This document shows, piece after piece, positions 1 through 16,287 of a stretch of DNA of 16,287 nt. The translations under genes were made by a program, and so were the position numbers. The first letter of the stretch is position 1. Each line of letters begins with the position of its first letter. The notes under the pieces are model-generated. The model worked only from the letters and a program-made list of their open reading frames with translations, made no database searches and was not told the origin of the DNA. The DNA is from an uncultured archaeon (GTDB lineage Archaea; Asgardarchaeota; Jordiarchaeia; Jordiarchaeales; Jordiarchaeaceae): NCBI GenBank assembly GCA_964510585.1, contig CAZECW010000021.1, forward strand, positions 1 to 16,287, given 5' to 3'.

Positions 1-1
1 A

Positions 2-140
2 TGCTGTGTTGCATAATTCTTATTTTTTTAATTTATTTATATATTATTTTGAATTTTTTGCAATTTCACATTGTTAATTTGAAAAAATTTAAGAAAATTA
101 AATAAATTCATTAGAAAAAGTAAAATTATACAACACAGCA
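2..140. repeat. AT-rich ungapped imperfect palindrome (139 bp, centre at 71)
   Basis: Positions i and 142-i pair. By hand count 53 of 69 pairs are Watson-Crick, plus 2 G-T. Perfect outer arms TGCTGTGTTG (2-11) / CAACACAGCA (131-140). May continue beyond the window start. Confidence 0.9.
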
Positions 141-240
141 CTGGTAAACACTGTGTATTAGATGTAGCTTGGATGTCCAAAAGCTCAAATAAAGCTCCAA
201 GCCGAGACAGGCAGAGAAGGTTCGAGCATTCAACGATAAT

Positions 241-398
241 CCCAGGTCCCACAAAGGACAGGGATAACTGGGTGGTGGCACACCCATTGCAGATAGCTAC
301 TGAGCGGTGAAGGGATGAACGCTTAAAACGCATTTATCCCCGAGTGTTGAGGGGGCTGTGTGCAAGAATCCCCAGACTTCAGTCGAGAGGAGTGTCAA
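241..398 (+). mobile_element. IS200/IS605-family right-end remnant (tnpB 3' tail / omegaRNA-like scaffold); left end not found
   Basis: GAAT (366-369), imperfect hairpin CCCCAGACTTCAGTCGAGAGG, terminal TCAA (395-398): an ISHp608-type right end. 265-290 is 25/26 identical to the reverse complement of 5464-5489. The left boundary is uncertain (somewhere in 141-240). Confidence 0.8.
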
Positions 399-467
399 TG
401 ACCAAGAAACCATCGTAGAAACCCAGATGCCGAATACCATAATCAATACACTCGTAGGCTCTAGTAA

Positions 468-683
468 TTAGTTGAATTTAAGCTCACCTAGCTGCCTCTT
501 TAAATCAAGTTTTACGGTCTTTCCCTCTCTAAACTCCCTCTCCGCTTCTTTCAAAATTAATTCTTCTTCCTTCGTTAGGATGTTATCCACTTATATCACA
601 GGCTTCTTAATGTAGGCAAGATCCCTTCTTATAGCCTTTAATTCCTCAACTATTAAGGTAAAATCGTCTTTCATTTCCACCAT
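468..683 (-). pseudogene. Archaeal RelB/VapB-like antitoxin with a premature stop
   Basis: Reads MVEMKDDFTLIVEELKAIRRDLAYIKKPVI*VDNILTKEEELILKEAEREFREGKTVKL, with in-frame TAA at 591-593. Resembles small archaeal antitoxins by recalled pattern. No toxin follows. Confidence 0.6.
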
Positions 684-1009
684 TCAACAACCTCCACAGC
701 TCAATTGTAGTTTTTCCTATGAACCTTTGTTTAGCTGTTTGAGTTCACAACAAATATACCAGCATTATATTTAAAGTTCCTCTTGGCTAAATCTGCTTTC
801 TTGAATATCATATATAGGTGAAGCAATGAAAAACCAGAACAAACATTCTACTTCACAAATCTAGAAAATACATAAAATAAGATATCGTTCCATGCGAAAG
901 TCGCAAACACTAAAACAGGCATCAACAACTAGCAGTCACCAGCACCTCCTAATACCCCTTGAGCACCCTTCAACCTTCTCAGTTTTTCCTTCAGTTCAAG
1001 GTTTTGCTA

Positions 1010-1180
1010 AATATTTCTCGTAACTTTTTTGAGCCGTTTGAGGGGGACGCTCACTTTGTTGCTGTGATTTGCTGCAGGTTCTGCAGTAGTCATGTTATTG
1101 ACCGGTGTCGGTCTGTTCGTTTCTGATAATTTTGTCGGTTTTTGTAAGTCGGAGCATACTTAATTGGAGCAGAATCTCTT
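1010..1180 (-). pseudogene. Possible degraded IS1-family InsA-like zinc-ribbon fragment
   Basis: Frame-hopping reads give FCSN*VCSDLQK / TDKIIRNEQTDTGQ*HDYCRTCSKS / VPLKRLKK, resembling the CxxxxC...IIRNG...CxxC pattern. Contains stops and frameshifts; no IS ends identified. Confidence 0.3.
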
Positions 1181-1328
1181 TTCCTTCTACCAGTTGCCAG
1201 ATTCATTGTAGTGTATTCCCGGTTCAGAACTATAAAGTCAGTAAAGTATAAATCAAACAGTATCGACGTAGACTAATATTCACAATCAAGCTATGAGCAC
1301 CCACCAAAATGCACGGCAGCAAGAATAT

Positions 1329-1761
1329 TTATTTTGGTATTATCTCAAATCCTAGGTTCACTTTTTCAAAATCAGCATCGCCGGTGAAAGCCTTGGTTAT
1401 TTTCAACTCCTGCATCAAAACAAAAGATGTTAAATCTGTAAATGAAATACTTGGTTTATCTTTCAGTTTTTTCCTCAGCTGCCAGGCAATTCTAAATCTT
1501 TCTTCTGCTATTCTCTCTAATACTAACAGGTCTTTTTTTATTATGGAGTGTAAAGCTTCTACAAATCGAACTTGCGGTAGCGAAAACAACATTTCTGAAG
1601 AGAGCTGTTATCACCTCGTCAAGCACGTAGTCGGAGGTAACCAGTCTATACCCCTCCCTTCTTATTTCTTTGTATTCTTTAACAGCACGTTTATGATTTG
1701 AATCATTCCGATTAGCCAAGGCCAGCCAGGCCCATGTGTCCACGAAAACCAGTTTAGCCAT
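1329..1761 (-). pseudogene. vapC: PIN-domain VapC toxin split by a +1 frameshift
   Basis: N-half MAKLVFVDTWAWLAL...SDYVLDE (ORF 1492-1806) and C-half VRFVEAL...SFTDLTSF...AFTGDADF (ORF 1329-1592). Removing one A at 1572-1573 restores FATAVRFVEAL. The span of 433 nt is 3n+1. Confidence 0.85.
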
Positions 1762-1966
1762 AGACATAATTATCATGCCTTTCCGCCAGATCAGGGGGGC
1801 CCTCACAAATCCCTATCACATCTTCTAAGAGGTCTTTCTTCTCCTTTTTCTTCTCCCCGGTTTTCCTCTTTTTCTTCTCCAACTGCTCAATAAAGTCCAT
1901 GACCTCTTTAATACTGTCTTCAGGCAACGATTTAACCTTCTGTATAAGGCTATCCCTATCCATCAC
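1754..1966 (-). CDS. vapB: VapB-type antitoxin (DUF2281-like N-terminus)
   Basis: 70 aa with LPEDSIKEVMDFIEQL and a DLAERHDNYVYG tail. Its stop overlaps the start of the downstream PIN gene. Confidence 0.75.
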   Translation of the reverse strand: MMDRDSLIQKVKSLPEDSIKEVMDFIEQLEKKKRKTGEKKKEKKDLLEDVIGICEGPPDLAERHDNYVYG

Positions 1967-1981
1967 TCTTCACCACAATTA

Positions 1982-2009
1982 CTCTCATAGAGAGCTAAAT
2001 AAACTTTTC
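1982..2009 (-). promoter_or_regulatory. BRE/TATA promoter with a putative palindromic operator
   Basis: Minus strand GAAAAG-TTTATTTA (2009-1996), followed by inverted repeat CTCTC-ATA-GAGAG (1982-1994), upstream of the ATG at 1966. Confidence 0.55.
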
Positions 2010-2132
2010 ATCGTCTAGATAAAAAGCACAGAAGAAAACTCACGTCTACCAAGCCTCCAAAATCCCCAAAGAAATAGATTTTGAATATTCTCTCATCCAA
2101 AAAGTTGTATCAAAAAGGATAGTTTAGTGAAT

Positions 2133-2657
2133 CTAGTGTGATGCCCAGCCCTGTGCACTGTGAAGCATGCCCAGAAACATGGCGTATACTTGGGGATCGT
2201 TGCTCCATTCCTCTTGGATCTCGAGTTCTTCCTCATTGTGAAAGGAGGGGGGACAATGGAGAAACAAGCCTCTAAGATAACGCCAGGCAAAGTCGCGATC
2301 ATTGCACAGAATTTCAATCTCACCCTCCTGACTGATGTGAACATGCAGAAGCACGTCCTCCCCTGGCACATAGCGTCTAATAATCAAACTGGGTTTAAAA
2401 AGGGGAGACAGAACCAGAGCCAAAGGCTGATCCTCGTTTATCTCTGCTCCCATGCCTGTCCAGAAACGCAGCCGGTCAGCGTAACCCCAACCCTCCTCCA
2501 ATATGAATTGAATATTCACGTCAATCGGACTAAAATTCGGATGCACCACCAAGCGATAAACTGGCACTACATTCACATTTTCCAACTGCTCACTAATCGA
2601 CTCACCATCACCCAAATATCTGCCTATAGGGATTCTTGAACGCTTCCGGGGACACAT
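2133..2657 (-). CDS. Hypothetical protein, 174 aa
   Basis: Open frame with protein-like composition, many G-starting codons and a purine-rich upstream stretch. Preferred over the antisense ORF 2160-2639. No family recognised. Confidence 0.6.
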   Translation of the reverse strand: MCPRKRSRIPIGRYLGDGESISEQLENVNVVPVYRLVVHPNFSPIDVNIQFILEEGWGYADRLRFWTGMGAEINEDQPLALVLSPLFKPSLIIRRYVPGEDVLLHVHISQEGEIEILCNDRDFAWRYLRGLFLHCPPSFHNEEELEIQEEWSNDPQVYAMFLGMLHSAQGWASH

Positions 2658-2928
2658 AATTCTCTCTCCACAGTTTTCATACCTTTTTTTGAATTTCCTT
2701 AATAGTAGGTTGTTTTAAAGGTATATGAACTCCAAGGTATATAAACGCCCCACTTGTTCAGACCATTGATTTCAATACATAGTTCTGATGTCTCAAGAAA
2801 ATGAGAATTCACAAATAGGGCGTGCAAAAGTTTACACTTCATTGAAAAAGGCGAATACAAAATCTCGATGAATAAAAATATGGGCAAAGTAGGTACGGGA
2901 TAATTACCCTTCATAGGCTTCAATTCAT

Positions 2929-3327
2929 CTAGTCTCGATGCAATTTTATTCCTTTAATTCTTTCGAAATGTTTCACGTTCTTTGTGTAGAATTTGGCGTC
3001 GTTTTCCAGTAATATTCCCGCAATCATAACATCTCTGAAATTCACAATTTGACCCTTTTCCTCTAACTCAGCCATTACCTCACCTGATAGTTTTGCCGAC
3101 TCGCCAGTAAACCTGAATGCTTCAAGCCTTAAGGCCAGTTCATCTACGGCTTTCACATTTTCCTCCTTTTTTGTTTTGAACGCACCGTAGTATAATTCAA
3201 AGAGATTTATTGTGGTTGTGGTAAGCTGGAATTCTTCTTCGAGTTGCTCAATTCTACCTCTAATCTTGCCTCTCAAGAAATCTATTAGTATGTCGGTGTC
3301 TAAGCATAGCGTTTCCACGCCTTCCAT
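2929..3327 (-). CDS. vapC: PIN-domain VapC toxin (intact)
   Basis: LCLDTDILIDFLRG, TTINLFELYYGA, FRDVMIAG, YTKNVKHF: the acidic PIN catalytic residues are present. Start is probably ATG 3327 or GTG 3318 rather than 3381. Confidence 0.92.
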   Translation of the reverse strand: MEGVETLCLDTDILIDFLRGKIRGRIEQLEEEFQLTTTTINLFELYYGAFKTKKEENVKAVDELALRLEAFRFTGESAKLSGEVMAELEEKGQIVNFRDVMIAGILLENDAKFYTKNVKHFERIKGIKLHRD

Positions 3328-3533
3328 CCCTTCCTCAGAAACTCCTTTATTTCTTGAGCCTCCTCGTCGCTGACATCCCAAGACCCGGAAAGATCACTAA
3401 TCTTTCTCCTCATAAGGTATTTTATTGCGTCCTCTATCGAGACAGATCTTTTCAATTCGGCCTGCAGCCTGCCAGCCATTTCAACAAGTTTCTTGTAGGT
3501 TTCCTCACTTATCTTGATGGATTTTGTGGTCAT
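3300..3533 (-). CDS. vapB: VapB antitoxin (RHH-type N-terminus)
   Basis: MTTKSIKISEETYKKL (beta-strand then helix) and ISDLSGSW. Overlaps the vapC start. Confidence 0.85.
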   Translation of the reverse strand: MTTKSIKISEETYKKLVEMAGRLQAELKRSVSIEDAIKYLMRRKISDLSGSWDVSDEEAQEIKEFLRKGWKAWKRYA

Positions 3534-3571
3534 AGTAGATAAAGTGGTTAAAGTAGTATAAATACCTTTTC
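3532..3571 (-). promoter_or_regulatory. Leaderless BRE/TATA promoter with three direct repeats at 9-bp period
   Basis: Minus strand GAAAAGG-TATTTATA (3571-3557), 24 nt before ATG 3533. Plus strand ATAGTAG (3532), AAAGTGG (3541), AAAGTAG (3550). Confidence 0.65.
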
Positions 3572-3760
3572 TCGTTGGAAAGTTAAGTTCTTTAGAACAA
3601 GAGGTTCTAGTTTGTTTTAAAGATTTGAGAGTAACATGACGCGGAGCAGAGTTTTTATGTTTTTGGAAGTCACCCAGTTCATGAAAAACCTCAAAGTACT
3701 GGAATGAAGTAACCTAGTTCTTAAAAAATTACTAAAGCGTGGCTTACACTCCGCTCCGTC

Positions 3761-4200
3761 TCAGAGTAGGTCTTCTAGGAATATGATGCGTATATTAAAG
3801 TGAGTCCTTTGATTCTCATCGACTAGTTCCTTTTCCCTTACTGCGAAGAGCGCGGGTGCGGAAACATGTTTAGCTAGTCCGAGGGTGAAGCAATCAGCCA
3901 ACGATACTCTACGCTCGCATTTTTACCGCGCTGAGATTTCGAAGATACGATCTGCATCCTCAACTATAAAGTATCCGGATTCTATTAGACCCGTAACTTT
4001 TTCGTGCGCCAACTTCCAACTGATGCGTCTGCAAATGTGATATTTGTCACGTGTGGAAGTATCTCCTCATCCCGAATTGCTTTCTTTATCTTTTCCACCC
4101 TGCTTGTCGGTAACAGTAATTATATGACGGTGCCGGCATCAAATACCAGCCTACCTTTGGGAAGCTCTTCTTTCGTGGGCTTTTTCTTCCTCTCTTTCAA
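3761..4200 (-). pseudogene. vapC: PIN-domain VapC toxin with two nonsense codons and a frameshift
   Basis: RLVFDAGTVI*LLL...EEILPHVT, then a shifted frame GLIESGYFIVEDA...SAR*KCERRVSLADCFTLGLA...ALFAVREKEL...IIFLEDLL*. TAA at 4120-4122 and 3923-3925; frameshift near 4010-4025. Start approximate. Confidence 0.85.
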
Positions 4201-4432
4201 GGTCTATCCTCCTCTCCTCCACAAGGTCTTTAATAACAAGGTCGGGATGGATTCCCTCCACTGGTTTGCAGGCTTCTTCCAAAAGTTCGGGTCTTCTTCT
4301 CTTCTCAAGAACTAAGTACATTATAACATTTTCAAAATCCACCTTTCTCCCCCACTTGAGCTGCAACTTAGCCATCTCCCTCAACAACTCCTTTTTGGCA
4401 GTCTCAGAAATAGAGATCGTAGTCCTCTTCAT
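4151..4432 (-). CDS. vapB: VapB-like antitoxin (RHH-type)
   Basis: MKRTTISISETAKKELL...KVDFENVIMYL; 93 aa, overlapping the PIN pseudogene. Confidence 0.75.
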   Translation of the reverse strand: MKRTTISISETAKKELLREMAKLQLKWGRKVDFENVIMYLVLEKRRRPELLEEACKPVEGIHPDLVIKDLVEERRIDLEREEEKAHERRASQR

Positions 4433-4929
4433 AAAAACATCCCAACTTCCAAAAATTGCTTCTAAAAATTCTCACCAATGAAAATAATATTCAATGTATA
4501 AAATTTATTCAAAGCATGAAAATGTCCAAAAAAATTGATGTATTTAGATGTTTATTAGTTTTCGGGTTTATAGGGGCGCGTCCAAAAATTCTAGTTTTAT
4601 GGGGTGTCTCCCTCTTTTATCGTGAGGTGGAGTGTGACTATGTGGCCTTGTCTTTAAGCCTATTTACAGCCACATGAAGGAGTGCGGGAAGGCTTTAGCA
4701 ACCAAAAATCAAGAAGAAGCAGATAGTGACACGTCCAAAAATTTGGGGGTGCCCACCGAAGAATAATACCCTGCGAGTCAAGCTCCAGAATCGATGATTA
4801 CAAAATGGTGCGAAATTTGGGACTACCGAGTTAACCTTTTCAAAGGAAAGATAATCTCCAAAACTTGTATGGATTTGTATTAATTGATTAACTGTGGAAG
4901 TATATCTATTAGGACTGTTAGTGCTATGT

Positions 4930-5385
4930 TTACCATGATTGGAGAAATTTTTTCAAATTTTTTATTCTGTCGCAATTTTCTAAATCGCGTATTAGCCTTT
5001 CGAGTTTATTAATATTAATATTTATTATTTGGTGTAGTTTTATACCATCATTTGGTAGACCGTAATTCCCCATTTGCATATTAGCTTGTTTTACAGCTTC
5101 TAATAACCATTCTTCTAGTCTCGGACACAGAACGACTAAACGATTGCACTTTTTATCATGTAGAATTTTCAAACCGTGTTCAGATAAAATTTCGGCTTTC
5201 GCTCTCTTCATATATGGTGGTTGTGGGCTGTTAGGGTCTTCGTCTACCAGTCCTATACAATTTTCCTGCTTTTCTAACTTTTTACAAATCTCAGGTTTGT
5301 TTCCTGCGTGAATAATTTCCTTCTTTGAAATTTTTATTAATGATTTTACCAGAATACTGTCTGGTTTGCATTCAACATAGATTAC
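4930..5385 (-). pseudogene. TOPRIM-like protein lacking a canonical start codon
   Basis: The frame is open well upstream of the ORF-track start: VIYVECKPDSILVKSL...IIHAGNKPEICKKL...IGLVDEDPNSPQPPYMKR, giving an E...DxD TOPRIM-type signature. No in-frame ATG/GTG/TTG lies between the upstream in-frame TGA (inside the inserted element) and Met at 5211. Confidence 0.55.
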
Positions 5386-5401
5386 TCTTTTAGAATTTTC
5401 T

Positions 5402-5575
5402 TTGACACTCTCCGCGACTAAAGTCGGGAGATTCTTGCTTCTGGCTCATCGGGAGCCTTCGAAGCAATGGGTGTGCCATCACCCAGTTAACACGCCCTTC
5501 CCTCAAAGGAACGGCGTCTATGTTGGCACCCTCATGGGGGCTGCGTCCTGTTTAGCCTCTTAAGCCCAAGCCAAA
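5402..5575 (-). ncRNA. Putative omegaRNA/reRNA-like structured RNA
   Basis: Internal TATATAAATA (rc 5595-5604) upstream; successive hairpins shared in position with 241-398; ends at the right-end TCAA. The 5' end is estimated from TATA spacing and expression is not shown. Confidence 0.45.
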
Positions 5576-5677
5576 CCCTTCAGCTACCAACAACTATTTA
5601 TATACCATACTTTCAAATAAACTTTCTGGCGATTCATCCCCACGACTAGAAGTCGGGGGCTTTCTCGCCAAGGTTTT
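5402..5677 (-). mobile_element. Complete 276-bp non-autonomous IS200/IS605 derivative (PATE/MITE-like) with ISHp608-type ends
   Basis: Left end: TTAC (rc 5678-5681) | AAAACCTTGGCGAG-AAAG-CCCCCGACTTCTAGTCGTGGGG. Right end: GAAT-CTCCCGACTTTAGTCGCGGAG-AGTG-TCAA. The AAAG/TTAC and GAAT/TCAA guide/cleavage pairs are those established for ISHp608. No tnpA or tnpB ORF inside. Confidence 0.88.
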
Positions 5678-5710
5678 GTAAAATTTTCATTTTGACTAAG
5701 TGGTTCTGCA

Positions 5711-5723
5711 AAAAGTTTAATAA
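5711..5723 (+). promoter_or_regulatory. BRE/TATA of the MFS gene
   Basis: AAAAG-TTTAATAA about 50 nt before ATG 5771. Confidence 0.5.
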
Positions 5724-5761
5724 TTATTGATACAATAATAAATGAGCTTCATCATAGAGGG

Positions 5762-7342
5762 TTGAGTGTTATGGTTAAGAAGAGAGAAGTTTCTGTTGAA
5801 ACTGAGGAGGTTAAAGGCAGGAAAAGATCGTTTATGGCTATTAGCTTGGCAAACTTTGTGGACAGGGCAGATATGCAGGCGCTTCCCACCTACTACACTT
5901 CCATAGGCCGGGAACTTGCAGTTACTCGTGGGGCTTTGGGTTTCATCACTTCAACTAGGTCAGCTATTCAAACAATTGTTGCCCCATTCTGGGGATATTT
6001 GGCAGACAGGTATTCTCGGAGAGTGGTTCTCACAATCGGTTGCTTAATTTGGGGCGCCTTTACTCTTCTGTGCGCTTATGCCGGCGATTTTACATCGCTA
6101 CTCTTCTTTAGACTATTGGCGGGATTTGGCTTGGCGACCATTATACCCACAGGTTTCTCGCTAGTTATAGATTATTTTAAGCCTGAGGATCGAGGCAAGT
6201 GGCTGGGGATTTTCCAGATGTTCGGGGTTCTGGGCGTCGCCATCGTGGTGCCTGTGTTGGGAATGCTAGACGCTCCAAGTTACACTTTCGGACTAGAATC
6301 TAACCTTTACCAACTTTACCTTTACTGGTTGGCGTATCCTCCCATACTTGACATACTAAAGGAACTCCTCTTATTTGACACATTGATGAAGTACACTGTT
6401 CACTATGGAGCTTGGAGAATGGGTTTCATACTGGTTGCGCTTATCAGCTTTATAGTAGCTGGTGTAGTGTGGTTCTTTGTTAAGGAACCTGTTAGGGGTG
6501 CGATGGAGAAGGAGCTTAAGGGCATAATTACTGTTGAAGCCGCGGAAAAGTATAAAATTGAGAGAAGAGCTGTGGGGGAGATTCTGCGAACAAGAACGAT
6601 GCAAATAATAATAATTCAGGGAATGCTCGGCTACATGCCCTGGGTTGTTTTCCAGGCTTGGCTTGTGCACTGGCTTGAAAGTGTGAGGTACATTTCGCCA
6701 AGCGACGCAACAATAGTTTTTGCACTGTTGGTGATAGGCGTGGCTCTGGGCAATGGTTTCGGGGGCTGGCTTGGAGATAAGGGTGAAAAGCGGAGTTTTA
6801 ACAGGGGCAGAATTATTGTGGCTCAGATTTCTGTGTTCTCGGGGATCCCCCTCACTTTGTTTGTGCTCACCACGCCCCTTTCTCTTGCGCATTACATGGT
6901 TCTGATGTTCATCACGGCTGTTTTGGTTAGTTGGGCTGGTCCCGCCGCTGTTCAACCAATGGTTGCCAACGTAACCAAACCCGAGGTAAGAAGCACCTCC
7001 TTCTCCATTGAGCAAATGTTTGAGGGGGGCTTCGCAGCGATAGCCGCAGTCATCACTGGATACTTGGCAGACACCATTAATGGTGGAGTGGCAGGCATAA
7101 CAATGCAAACCATCACCCCATACATAGGATACTGGCTTGGAGTTCTTCCCCTTCCTCTGTTGCTAGTTCTATTCACAGTTTCAGGACAATCGCTGACCAC
7201 GGCAATGCTCATAACAATAACTATTCCTTGGACACTTTGCCTGCTTGTGTGGTTCTTGGCATACAGATACTATCCCCAGGATAGGGGAAGAATCTTCGAA
7301 ATCTTGGAGGAAAGGCGAAAAGAAATGACCAAAAAACCCTAA
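5762..7342 (+). CDS. MFS transporter (MFS_1, spinster-like)
   Basis: ANFVDRAD in TM1, motif A GYLADRYSRR, FRLLAGFG, GWLGDKGE, about 12 hydrophobic segments. Start is TTG 5762 or ATG 5771. Confidence 0.93.
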   Translation: MSVMVKKREVSVETEEVKGRKRSFMAISLANFVDRADMQALPTYYTSIGRELAVTRGALGFITSTRSAIQTIVAPFWGYLADRYSRRVVLTIGCLIWGAFTLLCAYAGDFTSLLFFRLLAGFGLATIIPTGFSLVIDYFKPEDRGKWLGIFQMFGVLGVAIVVPVLGMLDAPSYTFGLESNLYQLYLYWLAYPPILDILKELLLFDTLMKYTVHYGAWRMGFILVALISFIVAGVVWFFVKEPVRGAMEKELKGIITVEAAEKYKIERRAVGEILRTRTMQIIIIQGMLGYMPWVVFQAWLVHWLESVRYISPSDATIVFALLVIGVALGNGFGGWLGDKGEKRSFNRGRIIVAQISVFSGIPLTLFVLTTPLSLAHYMVLMFITAVLVSWAGPAAVQPMVANVTKPEVRSTSFSIEQMFEGGFAAIAAVITGYLADTINGGVAGITMQTITPYIGYWLGVLPLPLLLVLFTVSGQSLTTAMLITITIPWTLCLLVWFLAYRYYPQDRGRIFEILEERRKEMTKKP

Positions 7343-7350
7343 AACAAAAC

Positions 7351-7370
7351 CTTCCCTCATCTTTTTTTAT
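7351..7370 (+). terminator. Pyrimidine/T-run terminator
   Basis: CTTCCCTCATCTTTTTTTAT just after the MFS stop; archaeal oligo-T type. Confidence 0.5.
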
Positions 7371-7602
7371 GAAATAATTCTTGAGGAAAAATTCTAAGAT
7401 TTTTACATTATCGGCTTTCTCTGCAACTTATGCCCCCTATTTTCACATAAAATGGATGGAAGGTGAGGTATCCAAATTGTTGATGGTGGTTTCCTCCAAC
7501 GGGTGAACTGATTAAGTATGGGTTTATGTTAAAACGGCTACGCAAAAAAGTGGGTTTGTTTCTTTTTTAATTTTAAATAGGAGTTGGGGGTAGGGGAAAA
7601 TT

Positions 7603-8403
7603 TTAGCTGCCGCTTTGTTTTAGGATGTGTTTCGCTGATTCTTCAATTTTTGGCATCAGCCTATCTAGCATCCCAAATATTCCTAGGGCGAATATGATGG
7701 TGCCCACAAGTGTTACTACAGCTTGAATTTCTGGGGATACTCTCTGGTAGAACATGTTGACCATTAATATTGTGAGTCCTAGGGCGAATCCCAATGATCT
7801 GCCGCTCCTGTTCTTCCAAGCAATGTAGTAGAAAAGTAGGATTGTTGGGGCGGAAATTAGCATAATGTATATTCCCATCGCAATTATGGGTGTGGGGGGA
7901 TACATTACGTTTAGAGGATCAAGGAAGGGCTCAATGTTTAGGAAGTATGGCAGGTTTCTAAGTAGGCTTGGGTCAAACTTTTCCGAAATAACATACCAAC
8001 TCTGTCCTATAAGCTGTCCACTTGTTATGTATGAAAGGTACTGGATGCCCAAGTATGCTTCTGTTCTGGTGTAGTCTAAAATGGAGTAGTGTATTGCTGC
8101 GATGGTGGCCACGTATGGTGGGAGCAGGTATAGTTCCCTTATTTCCATCATCGCCAGTCCTACCAGTAGTACCACGGAGAAGTCTATTAGGGATGTGAAA
8201 ACTATGTATACGTAGGGGTGGACTTGGAAAAGGTCAACGAGAATGAGGAAGTAGCCTATCCAGGTTGCTGAGAACATAGCGAAGTAAACTATTATTAGAA
8301 GAGTGACGATTTGCCTCCTTTCAAAGAAGCGTTTAGCCAGATAAGCCGCGCACACCGCGGTAGGAATTGAGCATAGTAGGACCATAGATTCATAAAACGC
8401 CAT
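7603..8403 (-). CDS. Hypothetical integral membrane protein, about 7 TM
   Basis: Seven hydrophobic segments; basic loops KRFFERR and WKNRSGRS; long loop between TM4 and TM5. Starts 2 nt after the stop of the upstream gene. Confidence 0.85.
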   Translation of the reverse strand: MAFYESMVLLCSIPTAVCAAYLAKRFFERRQIVTLLIIVYFAMFSATWIGYFLILVDLFQVHPYVYIVFTSLIDFSVVLLVGLAMMEIRELYLLPPYVATIAAIHYSILDYTRTEAYLGIQYLSYITSGQLIGQSWYVISEKFDPSLLRNLPYFLNIEPFLDPLNVMYPPTPIIAMGIYIMLISAPTILLFYYIAWKNRSGRSLGFALGLTILMVNMFYQRVSPEIQAVVTLVGTIIFALGIFGMLDRLMPKIEESAKHILKQSGS

Positions 8404-8405
8404 GG

Positions 8406-8804
8406 TTACCAGATTCCTTTTTCTTTTTTCAGTATATTTCCCATTTTGGATTTTTTATCTTCTTCGACAAGCTTTTCTAAATTATAGAAGTCGGAGAGAG
8501 CATTTATTCTTCCCCTCAGGTTTATTGCGGCGAGCCTAGCCACTTGTGGATCATTCATGACCACTATTATTCCAGTTCTCTCTGTCACCTTCATAAGGAA
8601 GGTGTTATTGTTGTGCAAACTGTCTCCCAAATGCATATCCAGTAACGGAAACCTATTGTAGTAGTCAAGAATTTCTCCAGAAACATTGCCCTTTTGACAC
8701 CAAACCTTATGATTCACGTCAACTATGGCCACCGCCTCTGGCTTCCACCTGCCCAAATTAACCTCCACAATTTCAACCAGCTTGTCGAGGTTCAATTCAG
8801 CCAT
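8406..8804 (-). CDS. Small soluble protein, possibly profilin/roadblock-like fold
   Basis: 132 aa with a helix - beta (EAVAIVDVNHKVWCQKG) - beta (FLMKV, TGIIVVM) - helix pattern. The CDS is well supported; the fold is my inference. Confidence 0.7.
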   Translation of the reverse strand: MAELNLDKLVEIVEVNLGRWKPEAVAIVDVNHKVWCQKGNVSGEILDYYNRFPLLDMHLGDSLHNNNTFLMKVTERTGIIVVMNDPQVARLAAINLRGRINALSDFYNLEKLVEEDKKSKMGNILKKEKGIW

Positions 8805-8983
8805 AGTTATTCCCTCTACCAGTAAATATACTTTTTAGTAGCTATGCTACATAATGTTTTCATCGCTTTTATATTTTTCCACGATTTTTACAATCGGCAC
8901 ATACTTTTGATTCACTTTTCCTTTCAACTTTATTTTCTTCCTTTTTAAGAAAAATTGTTTAGAGCTTTAGGTTCTCAGACTTA

Positions 8984-10045
8984 TTAATCTATTTCTTTTG
9001 GGTCTTCTCTTGGTAGTCTTTTTTCCACTGGAAGCATTGGCTTGAATTTTTTGTGTGGCTCTGTTTGGTACCAGTAGGCTGTGCTTGAGTAGTCGTCGGA
9101 GCGTCTGTTTGCATGTCCATGCTCAATTGTTACCCTGATGGATTTTTCAAAGTATATGGGGTCCTCTATGTGGAATCGGTACATGCTAATTTTTCCCGAC
9201 CAGTTTTTACCTCCGGGAACAGTTATCCCGTGGTAGGGGGCGCAGTACTCTTGGGCTGGGCAGAAGGCGGTGTTAAAGTAGTCTTCTGTTCCAGTTCCAT
9301 TTATGGTTGGTAGATTGTCGCCGTCTATGAATATCATGTCATCGCCCTCACCGTACCAGTTCCAGTTCTCTCTTGTTAATCTGAGGTTGTGGATGTTTAG
9401 GTTGCATCCTACGTAGTGTCCCTTACCCTCGGCTTCCAAGATTACATAGTTTCCTTTGCCGTCAAGATTTTTTCCTCCGAAGAGGTATTCCCAGTTGTCC
9501 ATTCCAAAGTCGGGTATGCCCTCACAGGGGTTTTCTCTATTCCAGGTTGCGTGGAACCTGCCAAGATTCTCCTCGAGTTTGGTGTATTCCTCATAGTCTA
9601 TGTAGTAGTAGAATATCATTGCCTGTTCTGACTCGTTAACAATTTCTATGACTGCTCTTTTGGAGAAGGGCATGGGGAAGAAGCAGTTAAATCCTCTACC
9701 GTTCTCTGGAGACATGGTGAGGGGTAGGGAGACGAAATTTTTGCGTATGGCGTGGCCTATTCCAAAGAAGTCTCCTATGGGTACCTCAACAGAAGGATTT
9801 TCCTCGTCGTCCCAGAACATCCGAATAAGAATCTTTCTCAGGTAGTATGGTGCTGAGCAATCCATGGTGACCCAAATGTGAGTTATGCAGCCCGCACCCC
9901 TAATATCAGCAATAGTGGCACTCTCCCGACTTTTTATTATCAAATAGTCGTCGTTGCCACCACTCTTATCCCAACTGGATACTCGTCTCCTTTTACAGTT
10001 CCTCAACCTTGGTAGGTCGCGTAGAGAACTTCCAATCCAACTCAA
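8984..10045 (-). CDS. Glycoside hydrolase family 172 (DUF2961)
   Basis: RRVSSWDKSGGNDD, GAGCITHIWVT, VEVPIGDFFG, WYGEGDDMIFIDG, GTGTEDYF, YRFHIEDPIYF, DDYSSTAYWYQ. GGAGGT at 10057-10052 favours TTG 10045 over 10051. Confidence 0.93.
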   Translation of the reverse strand: MSWIGSSLRDLPRLRNCKRRRVSSWDKSGGNDDYLIIKSRESATIADIRGAGCITHIWVTMDCSAPYYLRKILIRMFWDDEENPSVEVPIGDFFGIGHAIRKNFVSLPLTMSPENGRGFNCFFPMPFSKRAVIEIVNESEQAMIFYYYIDYEEYTKLEENLGRFHATWNRENPCEGIPDFGMDNWEYLFGGKNLDGKGNYVILEAEGKGHYVGCNLNIHNLRLTRENWNWYGEGDDMIFIDGDNLPTINGTGTEDYFNTAFCPAQEYCAPYHGITVPGGKNWSGKISMYRFHIEDPIYFEKSIRVTIEHGHANRRSDDYSSTAYWYQTEPHKKFKPMLPVEKRLPREDPKEID

Positions 10046-10309
10046 ATTCAAACCTCCTTAAATCACACTCTTTTCAAATATCACTCCTCAATTAAAGACT
10101 GTCGGAGTAGACCTATTATATTTTACAGCCTCCATTTTTTAATTTACGCCCCCATCAAATTTAGATGCGAGACTACCATTTAAGCGAATAAACCAACTTA
10201 TCAAGTGGAGTGAGAAAAAACAATAGGGAAAACAGGGTATCCTAACGGGAGAATAGAAAAAACTATAATTTGGACGTGGGACAAAAGGAGAATAGCAAGA
10301 GAATGATAC

Positions 10310-11386
10310 CTATTTCCCTCTTTTTTCTGTCTTCTCTTTTAGCATATTTATTATGAATGCTTTGTTGTCTGGAATCTCAGAGATATGTTCCTCTGGCCTT
10401 CTCACCAATTTTATAGCTTCGTTTGGACACGTGGGATAACACACCCCGCATCCCACACACCTGTGCTCATCTATTTCCGCGAATTCTTTTACCGTTATTG
10501 CTTCCATAGGGCAGCGTTCGGCGCAGGTTCCGCAGGCCGTGCACAAGTTGGTGTTTACCGTGCTGACATAGTTTGATCTTGCTAAAGCTCTAGGTAGTTT
10601 AGCTAATTTGAGAGCTCTGAAGAAGATGCAACAGTCAGAGCAGCAGTTACATATGGTTGCTATTTTTCCCTGGTGATTTTCAGTCACATGTACTAGGCCT
10701 TCCTGGTTTGCTTTTCTCAGGATTTCTAGCGTTTCTTCTCTGGTGATCTCTCTGCCCATTCCGTGCTCCACAATGTATTGTCCCATACTATCAAAATGTA
10801 GGCAAACCTCTAGAGAATGGTTGCATCCTCCGCCCGTATATCGGGCGATCTGTCTACAAGGGCAATTAGCTACGGCGAAAAACTTGTTTGCCTTAAGTAG
10901 CTCTTTGATATCCTCATAGGGGGTTATTTGTGAGCCGTGGGATATGGAAATATCTACGGGTATCACCCTAAGAATGGATTGTTTCCGGTCACCAATCTCA
11001 TAGGCAAACTTTTTTTCAAAGTAATTCTTCCAGAGAGGAGCAAGTTTCAAGACTATATCATTCTTCCTCCCAGGCCAGAAGGGAGTCTCAGAAAAGCCCA
11101 CAATCGAAGGCAGTAAACGGTATAACTTTTTACCTTCACGCTCCACGGCGAAAACGGTTCCCTTATCTGCCATTTTTTCCAGCCTTTTTCTAAGCCTATC
11201 CGGGTCCTCTTTAAGCTGGGCGGCTATCTCCTCAAGGGTCTGGATAACCAGCGGCAGTTTCAGGGCTAACTCGGCCTCTTCTGGGGTATAAAGGACTTTG
11301 AGAATTTCCAGTGCCTCCTCGCTTTTAGGAAACCCTATCGGCCACTCGTCAAGCTTCCTTCTTAATCTCTCATATACATCCTCCAA
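10310..11386 (-). CDS. 4Fe-4S dicluster protein with an N-terminal HTH-like region and extra Cys clusters
   Basis: C-terminal CTACGTCAERCP and CVGCGVCYPTCP; internal CPCR, CLHF, ICNCCSDCC; N-terminal LYTPEEAELAL. Confidence 0.88.
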   Translation of the reverse strand: MEDVYERLRRKLDEWPIGFPKSEEALEILKVLYTPEEAELALKLPLVIQTLEEIAAQLKEDPDRLRKRLEKMADKGTVFAVEREGKKLYRLLPSIVGFSETPFWPGRKNDIVLKLAPLWKNYFEKKFAYEIGDRKQSILRVIPVDISISHGSQITPYEDIKELLKANKFFAVANCPCRQIARYTGGGCNHSLEVCLHFDSMGQYIVEHGMGREITREETLEILRKANQEGLVHVTENHQGKIATICNCCSDCCIFFRALKLAKLPRALARSNYVSTVNTNLCTACGTCAERCPMEAITVKEFAEIDEHRCVGCGVCYPTCPNEAIKLVRRPEEHISEIPDNKAFIINMLKEKTEKRGK

Positions 11387-11599
11387 ATCTGGTAACCCCT
11401 AAACAAATTTTCTAACTTGAACTGTTAAGTATCTCATAAAGCTTATGCCTTAAAAATGATGTCATTTTTTTAAAACTTTTCGTTAATAAAACCAAATATT
11501 AGTAAGGGTTTAAGTAACACCAGTTTTGGCACTTCCCCACATAGTGTGGAGCTTTCCTCGCCCGGACATCATCGTAGAGGGTTTAAGGCGAGGGAAAGG

Positions 11600-12052
11600 C
11601 TATTTCATGTGTTCCCAAAGTATGGCTCCGCTTATGAGTCCAAGTAAGCCTCCGAAGTTAAAGAAGGCGAAGAATCCCATTAATCCGAATATGGTTAAAG
11701 TTACTGCGTACCACTTGTTGCCTGTCCATATACCTATGGAACTTAGAAGCATGACGAAACCGTGAACCGCAACTATGACTCCGAAGGTGTACAGGTCCCA
11801 AATAATTGCGCCCACATAGTAGCCTCCCAACGGTCCCAGGGAAATTGAATTGATGAAGGAAAAAAAGAATGTGGAGAAATATGTCATAAGCTGCTCCAAA
11901 AACTGTGGAAAGAGAATAGAAAGCCCCATCAAAAGTAGAATGTTCCCCCTCATACTAACACCCACTAGCATTATCACAAGCCCACTCAACACTCCATATA
12001 AACCACCAATACACCCCAACAAAACAAACGCCTTCTGCGAACCAGAACCCAT
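11600..12052 (-). CDS. Small membrane protein, paralog of 12230-12670
   Basis: LGCIGGLYGVLSG ... VHG ... FFNFGGLLGLISG. ATG 12052 (after GAGGG) is preferred over TTG 12079. Confidence 0.82.
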   Translation of the reverse strand: MGSGSQKAFVLLGCIGGLYGVLSGLVIMLVGVSMRGNILLLMGLSILFPQFLEQLMTYFSTFFFSFINSISLGPLGGYYVGAIIWDLYTFGVIVAVHGFVMLLSSIGIWTGNKWYAVTLTIFGLMGFFAFFNFGGLLGLISGAILWEHMK

Positions 12053-12229
12053 ACAGTAGCCCTCAACTCTATCATTCAACTACCACTACTTGGATTCCAC
12101 ACTTAAAAATGCTACCCCAATCTCAAGCGGAACATGCTAAGCCTCTATTTCAAGATTAAAAAAAGGAGAGCAAAACAAAGAAAAAGGAGAAGGTTTTTTA
12201 GGGGTGGTTTGTCTGTGAGGGCTCGTTGT

Positions 12230-12670
12230 TTACTTGCCTTTGTAGTAGAGTACAAGGCCAGCGATGAGTGCCAGTAGTCCTCCAAGGTTGAAGATGAGGA
12301 AACCAATGAATCCTATAATCGCCATTAGAATTGCGCCCCACATCTGTCCACGCATTGCGACGAATGCACCAAGGAGTATGAGTAAACCGTGAATTATGAC
12401 AATGATTCCGAGGATGGATAGAGCTGAGCTCGCCTGTAAACCTAAAAGTGGGGCAAGCGGACCGAAGGTGAAGGCGGCCAGAGTCGGAGAGACGTACTGA
12501 ATAATCGCGAGAATCTGTGAAAGGTATTCGGGATAGAGGTAACTCAACAGTAGAACATTGTTGATTGTGTTAGCTGCGCCTACTCCTGCTATGGCAATGG
12601 CTATTCCGGAGAGGATTCCGTAGAGTCCACCCAAGATGCCTAAAATTGCCCAAGCCTTTTCTTCTGCCAA
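12230..12670 (-). CDS. Small membrane protein (DUF4064-like), paralog of 11600-12052
   Basis: LGILGGLYGILSG ... IHG ... IFNLGGLLALIAG; GGAGG upstream of the TTG start. Confidence 0.85.
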   Translation of the reverse strand: MAEEKAWAILGILGGLYGILSGIAIAIAGVGAANTINNVLLLSYLYPEYLSQILAIIQYVSPTLAAFTFGPLAPLLGLQASSALSILGIIVIIHGLLILLGAFVAMRGQMWGAILMAIIGFIGFLIFNLGGLLALIAGLVLYYKGK

Positions 12671-12762
12671 GAGTTTTTCCTCCTACATTCTCCCCAGCTT
12701 GATTGGGGGGGGTTTTTACCTAAAGCGAATTATTCTATACTTTTCTATTTTCCTATTTTTCC

Positions 12763-12778
12763 TTTATAAGCTTTATCG
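12763..12778 (-). promoter_or_regulatory. BRE/TATA upstream of the membrane-protein paralog
   Basis: Minus strand CGATAAAG-CTTATAAA, about 95 nt before the start codon. Confidence 0.5.
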
Positions 12779-13458
12779 CCAAGGAATCCAACCATTACGA
12801 CAATTGCATAATCAACACAAAACTCCACAATTATGCAGATTTCTATTCCGAACCTCTGCACCACCATACCCCTCTTTGAAAATTTCGCAAAAACCCCCCA
12901 AAAAAACAGAGACCCCCAAACAAGCATCATAAACCAAATATGCCTACATCCCACTTAGGCATCGCAACCATATGTATTTGTTTCGCAGTTTTTCACTAAC
13001 TCCTATTTTAAATAAGGCCTCTTGATTTTTGGACATTTCTTGCTTGACGGCTGAAGGCGACGTTTCATTTTCACCTCAAATATTTATCATATTAAGTATT
13101 CGTGTAAAAATTTTTGAAATATGAAAAAAAGCAAGCCAACAATAACCATAAATAAGCCAAACAATCGGAGCCAACATTGAACATACGGAACTCACACTTT
13201 ACTAATGTAAACCTAGGTCTTTTCCACACTTAAAAGCCCATCTTAGACTTAGACATTTTTACTCCCCACGAACCTACCCACACGAAGTAACGCAGAGTTA
13301 ACCTCGCCAACACACCAACAAAAAACTTAGAAAAAACAAAAGCAACCACAAATAGAAAAAGTTAAAGGAAAAAAACAAAATCGATCCAGAACCAGACCCC
13401 AAAAAAACACAAAAACACCAAAACCAAGAGAAAACCACCCAAAAACCCCTCGAAAATG

Positions 13459-13475
13459 TTAGGTTAGGTTAGGTT
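13459..13475 (+). repeat. (TTAGG)3TT short tandem repeat
   Basis: TTAGGTTAGGTTAGGTT read directly. Confidence 0.9.
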
Positions 13476-13720
13476 GTTTTCCCTCCCAGAATCGCCATAA
13501 ACACCCAAAAAGCCACAATTCCCTCCAACGAAAAAGGGAGAAAAAACAGGGCAAAAACCTCTAAACAAATCTAACATTGTCAAGATAAAAAGAACCAAAA
13601 ATTTCCCAAAAACTTCAGATAAAAAACGCGAAAAAAGTTGAAATATTAAAAAGTAGTAAATACATAATAAGGTCAATATTACTAAACCTTAGAATTCTAA
13701 CTGAAGGAAGAATGTAGAGA

Positions 13721-16287
13721 ATGAAGAAAAAGAGTCTCCTTCCAATCATACTTATCCTACTACTGACACTCTCAATGCTCGTAGTAATTTTAGCAGGAAA
13801 CACCCAGCTAACACTACCACTGAACTCATCCCAAAACTATCTAAACCCCACCGCAAAATCTTACACCGGAAGCGGAGACCAACTAAACGCCCTACTCTAC
13901 ATAACAAACAACACCATCACTACACCAAACGCTACAAGCACAAGCGACAACATATACATCCCATGTCCCAACGGCTGGAAAATCATCTGGACAAACATAA
14001 CAATTTCAAACATTAACGCACCAAACGTTACCATAGAACCAAATGCTAGCACCCCTGACGATAGTGTAAAATTAGGTTTTTATGCAATGTCATTCCGTTT
14101 AACAAGTAACGCATACTTGGATAAAGTCAGCGTGATGCTTAGAGTAAACAATGATGATTATGCAACCTTTTATGTTTACAGAGCGACTAATAATAATGGA
14201 GTGCCTATACCGAGTACTTACCAGAAGAGAATCAGTGACGTTTTTCTCAATAATGGAACCAATTACTGGTTGGATGTTGATTTCGGACATGAGTTTTTGA
14301 ATATCTCAGAAACTTTTGATAATACCTTTTTCATTGCCATCGAAGGTCAAGGGGAACTTGATGGATACTGGAGAGCTTTATCGGATAGTCCTCCACCAGG
14401 TGCTGGATACGTGTACAAGAGGGAGGCAACCTGGACGTTACAAGACTATGATTGTAAACTTAGGGTGAATGTTAGTGCAAGTCAGTTGGCGCCGGCTGAG
14501 AGCGCTTGGCCCTCGGATATTAACTTGACTATTAACGGTTCACAGGTTTCAGATGTTAGTAAGGGTAATGGTGAGTGGATTAATGATACTGTATCCCCTG
14601 TTTCAACGGGTTACATTTTCTTTGATGTGAATTCGACTTGGATGACTGATGTGAGTTTCTCTTATGTCTGGAATGTTACTTATGGTAAGGATGCTAGTGC
14701 TAATACCAATTTTGTTGTCAGTTATGATAGTGCTTCTTTTTGGAATGTGACGGTTGATGCTTCTGATGCTTTTCCCTTGACGGATAATGGTGTTAACCAC
14801 ATTAATATTACTGGGATTCCTCAGGACTGGGGAGACTCAAGCTCGATGGCTTACAATCAAACTGGTGATAGTTGGGTTGAGCTGCTTAGCCATCCGCCTG
14901 ACACTATTAGTTTCATTGCTAGTAATGGTACTTGGGTTGTGAATTGTACTGCTCCCAACTATGTTTCGGGAATTTCTTTTGGGGTTGACGGGGAACCAGT
15001 TGAAAACGCAACTCTCTACGACCTTCTCGACATTAATGTGCTTTTCAACACTTCCCTGAGAAGCAATGTTACTGGAACTGTCAACATCACAATTTATGAT
15101 CCGGGCCAAATCATGAATCATACTGACGAAAAAACAGTGAATCAGGCTACTAATACTTCGTTCAGCTGGGATGTTGGCAGCACGGCTAGCTCCACTGGAA
15201 CCTATAATGTTACTGTGAGTTTCCATGATGGTTTTGTTGTTGGCTATAATGAATCGCAACTCAGCGTTGTGTCTCTTGTGGGCACTCAGCTTGCTGTGAC
15301 TTGGTCTCCGCCACATTATGAGTATCCGGGGCCTGTTCCAGTACTCCTCCACTATAATAGGACTGATTCTGGTCAGGGGATAGCTGGAGCAAACATTTCT
15401 GCTTATTTTGAGAATAATACACCTATAACTATTCCGTCTCCTACCGATTATGGAAACGGCTCTTACAGGGTGGAGTTAAACTTCGGCACAGCCTTTGATG
15501 TTCACAGAGTGTACTTCAACGCCAGTAAACGCCTCTTCGAACCAGGTGTTTCCAGCCAAATTCAAATTAACTATACCAAGGTTTTGGTCAACATTATTTT
15601 GAATACGCCTCCGAGTGTGGTTCTCAACACCCCCTTAGTGGCTGCTGTTATGCTGCGTTATGCAACCAATAATTCTGCGTTCGCCAATCAGACTGTTAAC
15701 TTTAATTTTTCTTTGAGATTCACCAATGGCACAATCATAGTTATTCAGCGTAACAGTTTAACCAATTACGAGGGGAGGGCTGAAGCCTCCATCGTGGTGC
15801 CCCTGGACACTGTTGAGCTGAATGTTTCAGCCTTCTACAATGGTACAAGCACTGTTTTGGGTGTGGTGAGTTCCACAAATAGTGTTACTCTAACCAGTGA
15901 GATGGTTAACCCGCTGTTTATGGGCTTGTTTTCCTACATGTTCCTTACAGTTGCGCGGCAGAACCAGAATTTAACCTTCTATATTTTGGTTGGGGCCTTG
16001 TTGGCTTCTGTGGTTGCGGCTGGTGTGGTGGCGAGTAGGGTGCGTAGGAGGCGGCTGGTTCCTCTGAAGGCTTTGGCCAGTCTTGAGAACATTATTGTGG
16101 ATCATATTGCTACTGGTGCTACCTTGTGGTCGTTTGACTTTTTGAAGATGGAGCAGGATGTGACGCTGGTTTCTGGTTTTATGTCGGCGGTTAAGTCATT
16201 TATGGGTGAGATGCAAAAGGGTGGTCTAAGAAAACTGGAAACTGAGCTTGGTACCTTCATAAGGGAAGACGGAGACTTTTTAACGGC
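13721..16287 (+). CDS. Large single-pass surface glycoprotein with a cytoplasmic longin-like domain (3'-truncated, >=855 aa)
   Basis: Uninterrupted frame from ATG 13721 to the window end, absent from the ORF track because no stop is in the window. Signal peptide MKKKSLLPIILILLL; about 40 N-x-S/T sequons by hand count; TM FYILVGALLASVVAAGVVA (15977-16033); RVRRRR; then LENIIVDHIATGATLWSFDF...LVSGFMSAVKSFMGEM. Confidence 0.9.
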   Translation, partial: MKKKSLLPIILILLLTLSMLVVILAGNTQLTLPLNSSQNYLNPTAKSYTGSGDQLNALLYITNNTITTPNATSTSDNIYIPCPNGWKIIWTNITISNINAPNVTIEPNASTPDDSVKLGFYAMSFRLTSNAYLDKVSVMLRVNNDDYATFYVYRATNNNGVPIPSTYQKRISDVFLNNGTNYWLDVDFGHEFLNISETFDNTFFIAIEGQGELDGYWRALSDSPPPGAGYVYKREATWTLQDYDCKLRVNVSASQLAPAESAWPSDINLTINGSQVSDVSKGNGEWINDTVSPVSTGYIFFDVNSTWMTDVSFSYVWNVTYGKDASANTNFVVSYDSASFWNVTVDASDAFPLTDNGVNHINITGIPQDWGDSSSMAYNQTGDSWVELLSHPPDTISFIASNGTWVVNCTAPNYVSGISFGVDGEPVENATLYDLLDINVLFNTSLRSNVTGTVNITIYDPGQIMNHTDEKTVNQATNTSFSWDVGSTASSTGTYNVTVSFHDGFVVGYNESQLSVVSLVGTQLAVTWSPPHYEYPGPVPVLLHYNRTDSGQGIAGANISAYFENNTPITIPSPTDYGNGSYRVELNFGTAFDVHRVYFNASKRLFEPGVSSQIQINYTKVLVNIILNTPPSVVLNTPLVAAVMLRYATNNSAFANQTVNFNFSLRFTNGTIIVIQRNSLTNYEGRAEASIVVPLDTVELNVSAFYNGTSTVLGVVSSTNSVTLTSEMVNPLFMGLFSYMFLTVARQNQNLTFYILVGALLASVVAAGVVASRVRRRRLVPLKALASLENIIVDHIATGATLWSFDFLKMEQDVTLVSGFMSAVKSFMGEMQKGGLRKLETELGTFIREDGDFLT

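Follow-up and report, generated by a model that had tools for sequence, protein, structure and literature searches.

Two families of gene-less IS200/IS605 elements in a Jordiarchaeales genome share a conserved fold consistent with a TnpB omegaRNA scaffold

The DNA analyzed here, a 16,287-nt stretch of an uncultured Jordiarchaeales archaeon (CAZECW010000021.1, positions 1–16,287; hereafter the window), contains two segments on opposite strands that follow one structural plan in different sequence, raising the question of what kind of element they represent and whether the plan is that of a folded RNA. In both, as read directly from the sequence, a two-part hairpin (P1) is followed by a 26-nt block containing a second stem (P2), by a third stem (P3) and by a right end of the form GAAT–hairpin–TCAA. 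The GAAT-to-TCAA distance is 33 nt in the plus-strand and minus-strand copies alike, and the block is identical at 25 of 26 positions, its sole difference (G/A) lying in the loop; the P3 interiors are unrelated, the minus-strand one being much shorter. The original prediction had placed this series at 241–398 (plus strand) and 5402–5520 (minus strand), and its features, including block identity and spacing, were recovered there; the outer limits had to be moved, as the minus-strand element runs to 5677 and similarity on the plus strand starts near 139, not at 241. We consider it probable (about 0.8) that both segments are PATEs or MITEs of two families, termed A and B, namely IS608-like IS200/IS605 deletion derivatives that each keep the scaffold part of a TnpB omegaRNA.

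The minus-strand segment is a complete family A PATE of 276 nt without an ORF (5402–5677), lying 3' of a TTAC (5681–5678) and ending in TCAA (5405–5402); it is one of about 70 family A copies in the genome, and the covariance model matches it at 5402–5531 with 95.3 bits. A guide tetranucleotide stands 5' of each hairpin foot (AAAG at 5663, GAAT at 5434). At the left end (5638–5663), AAAG (5663–5660) adjoins the left subterminal hairpin (5659–5638), with the TTAC target 18 nt upstream of the hairpin foot. A TATA-like box (TATATAAATA, 5595–5604, minus strand) recurs in the consensus of family A and might act as a promoter for the scaffold, with a start near 5575; a TATA-like word occurs at a comparable place in family B PATEs and also after the left end of a full-length element on contig C81. 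Downstream, P1 (5517–5492) is a two-part hairpin, CGCC.TTCC / GGAA.GGCG, whose stem is kept and whose loop varies among copies; its pairs covary, as in the closing pair (GC/CG/AU). The 26-nt block (5464–5489) holds P2, 5485–5480 with 5473–5468, around the loop AUGGCA (5479–5474). P3 (5435–5467) is closed by TTGC (5467–5464) and GCAA (5438–5435) around a short interior, with two-sided changes in all eight pairs of the closing helix. According to sequence and pair counts, the right end (5402–5434) comprises GAAT (5434–5431), an imperfect hairpin (5430–5410), UGUCA (5407–5403) as the 3' strand of a candidate pseudoknot, and the cleavage site TCAA (5405–5402). The predicted guide of this copy would extend from 5401 downward on the minus strand.

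The plus-strand segment belongs to family B, whose members are about 330 nt long and number four in the genome. Three sister copies, on C107, C58 and C32, have TTAC, AAAG and the left hairpin, whereas the window copy (139–398) lacks all three; it aligns to the sisters at 89–93% identity, with similarity beginning near 139, and retains a complete scaffold and right end (model match at 228–398, 148 bits). An extra 5' stem, GCTTGGA (167–173) with TCCAAGC (196–202), was called by RNAalifold from 22 copies aligned with MAFFT, and three of its pairs switch UA/CG or CG/UA between the copies of this genome and those of other metagenomes. P1 (240–264) consists of CCC/GGG and GTCC/GGAC separated by an internal loop, as given by the fold, the pair counts and RNAalifold on MAFFT. 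Within the block (265–290), P2 pairs TGGGTG (269–274) with CACCCA (281–286) around the loop GUGGCA (275–280), and an old tnpB frame reads ..DNWVVAHPL.. across it. P3 (287–365) is closed by TTGC (287–290) and GCAA (362–365) around a structured interior of about 70 nt. The right end (366–398) carries GAAT (366–369), a hairpin (370–390), UGUCA (393–397) and TCAA (395–398), and the predicted guide would start at 399. Two pairs of this right hairpin are replaced by C.A and A.G mismatches in this copy only. Since the left end is lost and the right hairpin weakened, the copy is judged stranded and is most likely an immobile, decaying fossil. ORFs inside 139–398 and 5402–5677 are short and unconserved only; one of them (173–310) is a remnant of the tnpB frame and ends in ...IIPGPTKDRDNWVVAHPL..., and intact TnpB carries the same words in its C-terminal tail.

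Positions 2–140, at the contig start, form an AT-rich imperfect palindrome of 139 bp (69-nt arms, 77% complementary, 1 nt between them), which abuts the point where the family B copy loses similarity to its sisters. Two origins are conceivable: a genuine insertion or rearrangement by which the element lost its left end, or a fold-back artefact of the contig end. Elsewhere, the window holds a run of small toxin-antitoxin-like genes (1329–4432), within which a PIN-domain ORF (2929–3381, minus strand) is overlapped by a short upstream ORF (3300–3533), together with DUF2961, 4Fe-4S and MFS genes; an ORF of 855 aa without a Pfam match (13721–16285) runs off the window. A tRNA scan of the window found none. 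Of the neighbouring genes, one for a transporter is weak evidence of an Asgard host.

The ends assign the two families to IS200/IS605. All 13 complete family A copies of 276–280 nt are preceded by TTAC and end in TCAA, and the same target and end occur in family B copies from this and other samples. The work of Barabas in 2008 reportedly identified GAAT as the right guide of IS608 from Helicobacter pylori. In that element the left guide is AAAG, the target TTAC and the right cleavage site TCAA, with 19 nt between TTAC and the hairpin (PMC3201880). The elements described here thus share its tetranucleotide code (AAAG/TTAC, GAAT/TCAA) and nearly its left spacing (18 nt versus 19 nt), but differ in having an archaeal host, other hairpin sequences and TCAA only 4 nt from the right hairpin foot instead of 10 nt. 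This code at the hairpin feet, together with intact tnpA+tnpB parents bearing the family A left end, substantiates the IS605 derivation proposed originally. In a divergent subgroup (L047, L057, L074 and L081), the right-end tetranucleotides GAAT/TCAA have changed jointly, to GAAC or GGAC with TCAG, as expected from DNA-guide pairing by TnpA.

The genome (3.78 Mb, 217 contigs) contains at least three autonomous tnpA+tnpB copies, split over contig ends. Three Y1_Tnp genes retain the HUH motif and the tyrosine, each followed by tnpB, and the autonomous left ends on C169, C7 and C162 are nearly identical to that of family A. In the 3' parts of the autonomous copies, the TnpB zinc ribbon is followed immediately by a third version of the fold. 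On C81, the tnpB frame of a full-length element passes through P1 and P2 (...DNWVVAHPL...) to the right end. Likewise, 13 metagenome ORFs of about 400–455 codons from stop to stop reach into the block, and complete tnpB ORFs read from the first ATG encode proteins of about 400–427 aa; both metagenome TnpB ORFs that were scanned contain OrfB_IS605 and Cas12f1-like TNB domains. Thus, in the 13 full-length relatives and in C81 the tnpB ORF spans P1 and P2, and in some it continues to the right end. Lying across both the right end and the 3' end of intact tnpB, the fold occupies exactly the position of TnpB omegaRNA scaffolds, and position and architecture, including an ISDra2-like pseudoknot candidate, support the omegaRNA reading of the original prediction, under which the fold would be such a scaffold.

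The TnpBs linked to the scaffold (L089:11132–12415, L042:5103–6386 and C81) have a glycine at the canonical RuvC-II glutamate (..ILGKL.., ..AVGDL..), and an alternative RuvC-II glutamate was not located in these three proteins. "RuvC-II rearranged" TnpB clades are known and thought to be active (PMC10691335); the partner TnpBs match these clades in sequence, and their activity is putative here. A separate feature of C81 (5072–6787, minus strand; L039:211–1926) is a 571-codon frame in which a degenerate Y1 transposase is fused with an apparently complete TnpB. The Y1 domain lacks its beginning and has YIQ in place of the HUH motif, so that the frame looks like a tnpA pseudogene in frame with tnpB.

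The copies share a conserved four-helix fold: P1, P2 with an NUGGCA loop, P3 of variable length and the right-end hairpin. From 59 copies aligned with MAFFT, RNAalifold returned P2, P3 and the right hairpin, with two-sided changes in 12 of 20 pairs. When 104 copies were aligned to the covariance model, 93.4% of cells were paired, compared with 38–54% in slid controls in which the pairing partners were moved by 1–3 columns. In this set, two-sided changes occurred in 25 of 32 pairs (pair counts, being taken from model-fitted alignments, lean towards the model), and none of 500 shuffles reached the observed values, a test that kinship among the sequences inflates. As these 104 copies were gathered via an exact 21-mer of the block, the invariance of P2 among them is built in; for this reason, 40 divergent copies found by the model alone were fetched from other genomes. 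Here, 86.6% of cells were paired (37–47% in slid controls), two-sided changes affected 30 of 37 pairs, and five of the six P2 pairs covaried (for example GC/CG/GU and UA/CG) around a loop that stays NUGGCA. The slid controls and the MAFFT results agree in direction with the model-fitted counts, and P1 as well as the family B 5' stem (167–173 with 196–202) was recovered from a MAFFT alignment without model fitting. The fold is therefore retained while the sequence diverges, as had been claimed from the two window copies.

Much of this covariation could stem from the tnpB-linked parents, with the PATEs merely inheriting it. Among loci L040–L137 (alignment A1), both P1 types (ataatCCC.. and ataGGCTACC..) are found with both long P3 interiors, a shuffling that suggests recombination between related elements. 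An all-against-all column scan of alignment A2 for long-range pairs was noisy and yielded one extra outer P1 pair only.

A candidate pseudoknot would connect the P2 loop to the right end. In the 40-copy divergent set, the loop bases UGGCA can pair with UGUCA, a pentamer separated from the guide by a single base, in 96.6% of cells. Six sequences show A-U and three G-C in place of the middle G.U, and one has a double change; the changes are mostly one-sided, with almost no two-sided covariation. This pattern fits a pseudoknot and is not proof of one, because TCAA is also constrained by TnpA. Single-sequence folds had instead joined GUGU, close to the 3' end, to an ACAU preceding P1; this candidate was set aside, as the loop pseudoknot accounts better for the 3' strand.

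The elements are abundant in the host. With up to four mismatches allowed, the 3.78-Mb genome contains 81 instances of the 26-nt block, and the covariance model (P1 to P3 plus right hairpin) matches 88 places, so the likeness of the two window segments is not due to chance; together with the strong covariation, this is the outcome of the survey of genomic copies suggested in the original prediction. The model also matches all five congeneric genomes examined and, across the phylum, 20 of 60 relatives, and the exact 21-mer of the block is present on at least 88 metagenome contigs and in MAGs of Methanomethylicota, Hadarchaeota, Jordarchaeia and Nitrososphaerota. Family B is frequent in hot-spring metagenomes, from which about 30 distinct copies were retrieved. 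In many cases a contig ends about 50 nt from the block, indicating that the repeat breaks the assembly.

Second genomic targets were sought for 83 predicted guides. This gave 12 short matches, approximately the chance level, with one exception, a site shared by C12 and C154; the predicted guide of the plus-strand window copy had no second, TTAC-flanked match elsewhere in the genome. At the exceptional site, the right flank of a PATE on C12 (C12:8681–8955) recurs at C154:2119–2321 with 98% identity (194/198), directly preceded by TTAC and with no PATE, thus resembling an empty site. A mis-join through the repeat, a strain variant and PATE-mediated recombination are possible origins, which are indistinguishable because the left flanks of C12 and C154 differ. 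In addition, about 60 nt to the right of a PATE on C62 (C62:12658) recur on C75 around 18733 (minus strand), where they follow the terminus (..TTACAA) of another repeat, about 135 nt long and present in about ten genome copies (C66, C90, C207, C193, C25 and others).

From these observations a working scheme can be proposed. The parental TnpA would move complete PATEs by single-strand peel-and-paste, inserting them 3' of TTAC. A promoter kept beside the left end would transcribe the scaffold and read through TCAA into the flank, providing a guide of about 16 nt specific to each copy. The parental TnpB would bind this PATE RNA in trans and, after excision, would cut the TTAC-plus-flank donor joint, whereupon recombination would restore the copy. 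This scheme follows the model of Meers 2023 (PMC10055086), in which omegaRNAs, often encoded by PATEs, are used in trans. The roughly 80 gene-less cassettes outnumber the few tnpB genes by about 15 to 1. On this basis, self-promoted guide cassettes might act as parasites competing for the parental TnpB, or some immobilized copies, such as 139–398, might be kept as fixed guides against host or foreign DNA; we regard either role as doubtful.

Several alternative explanations bear on why gene-less copies keep the fold. It might be a passive relic, functionless in PATEs whose internal deletions left the 3' end of tnpB intact by accident. Within family A, the copies are young and almost identical, too alike to inform on purifying selection within this genome, and the plus-strand copy is decaying, with its left end gone and two right-hairpin pairs broken, both of which are compatible with a relic. 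Nevertheless, at least four independent PATE lineages from different archaeal phyla, including families A and B here and the Jordarchaeia PATEs L043 and L049, preserve the scaffold in full, from P1 through TCAA, even though the two ends are all that TnpA requires; compensatory changes maintain pairing in divergent PATE lineages, and the TATA-like box is retained upstream. These points render a mere relic unlikely. Alternatively, the stems might fold in the single-stranded top strand and assist excision or integration by TnpA as DNA. The left and right hairpins certainly serve TnpA in this form, and the joint change of GAAT/TCAA to GAAC/TCAG is a signal at the DNA level. Counts of G.U versus A.C, applied as a strand test, gave a modest excess only, and because the structured strand is also the TnpA-active top strand, strand bias does not separate RNA from top-strand DNA. 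A purely DNA-level role is nonetheless improbable for P1 to P3, which occupy the omegaRNA scaffold position of studied elements, given that IS608 requires only its subterminal hairpins and the guide and cleavage tetranucleotides (PMC3201880).

A third reading would make the fold a regulatory, sotRNA-like sense-overlapping RNA or an attenuator of tnpB expression rather than a guide. Its precedent is from Halobacterium, where Gomes-Filho in 2015, before TnpB guides were known, is said to have described sense-strand transcripts that overlap IS1341-type tnpB genes at their 3' ends. A gene-less PATE, however, lacks any tnpB in cis that such an RNA could regulate, and sotRNAs are nowadays generally interpreted as omegaRNAs, which makes this reading the least credible of the three. 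We therefore retain the interpretation of both window segments as PATEs that probably carry a TnpB omegaRNA scaffold.

Comparable elements are known. PATEs were first named in Haloquadratum walsbyi (PMC3119063), and gene-less PATE-like IS200/IS605 elements encoding omegaRNAs have been described in Geobacillus stearothermophilus (Meers et al. 2023, PMC10055086). Like the latter, the elements studied here have no ORF, possess both subterminal hairpins, are present in many copies per genome, carry the scaffold beside the right end and appear to be mobilized in trans. They differ in their hot-spring archaeal host, in having two families within a single genome that match in structure but diverge in sequence (about 80 copies together), in a scaffold without an Rfam family and in a partner TnpB of the RuvC-II-rearranged type. 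In ISDra2 of Deinococcus radiodurans, nucleotides −5 to −3 of the omegaRNA (reRNA) base-pair with a loop located about 100 nt upstream (PMC10097598). Similarly, the scaffold here lies across the 3' end of tnpB and the transposon right end, comprises several stems in about 116–170 nt, and would pair the bases just 5' of the guide with an upstream loop (the candidate pseudoknot), with a guide predicted to come from the flank. Unlike the case of ISDra2, with which no sequence or covariance-model similarity was detectable, P1 lies and covaries inside the coding region of the TnpB tail and P3 ranges from about 10 to 75 nt; the target (TAM) is TTAC, compared with TTGAT in ISDra2. TldR proteins are nuclease-dead TnpBs with fixed guide RNAs (PMC10705468). 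The left-end-less copy at 139–398 resembles TldR guides in being a predicted TnpB-family guide RNA outside a mobile element, but it has neither an adjacent tnpB-like gene nor a TTAC-flanked genomic target, and its right hairpin is decaying. A search of the whole window against Rfam 15 at E values up to 1 matched no family, indicating that the scaffold family is uncurated and giving no evidence for another identity.

PATEs bearing omegaRNAs are thus a kind already described, and the current picture of how IS200/IS605 elements work is unchanged; the scaffold class is uncurated. What is new here is the side-by-side comparison of two families, an unbiased covariation test that includes P2, and the spread over archaeal phyla. 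For genome annotation, the copies matter because they break assemblies and split genes. More broadly, these results would define a well-supported omegaRNA scaffold class missing from Rfam, represented by a covariance model plus about 150 diverse sequences, distributed over several thermophilic archaeal phyla, and paired with compact TnpBs (about 400–427 aa, rearranged RuvC-II) and a simple TTAC target motif, and may offer a lead for heat-stable genome-editing tools.
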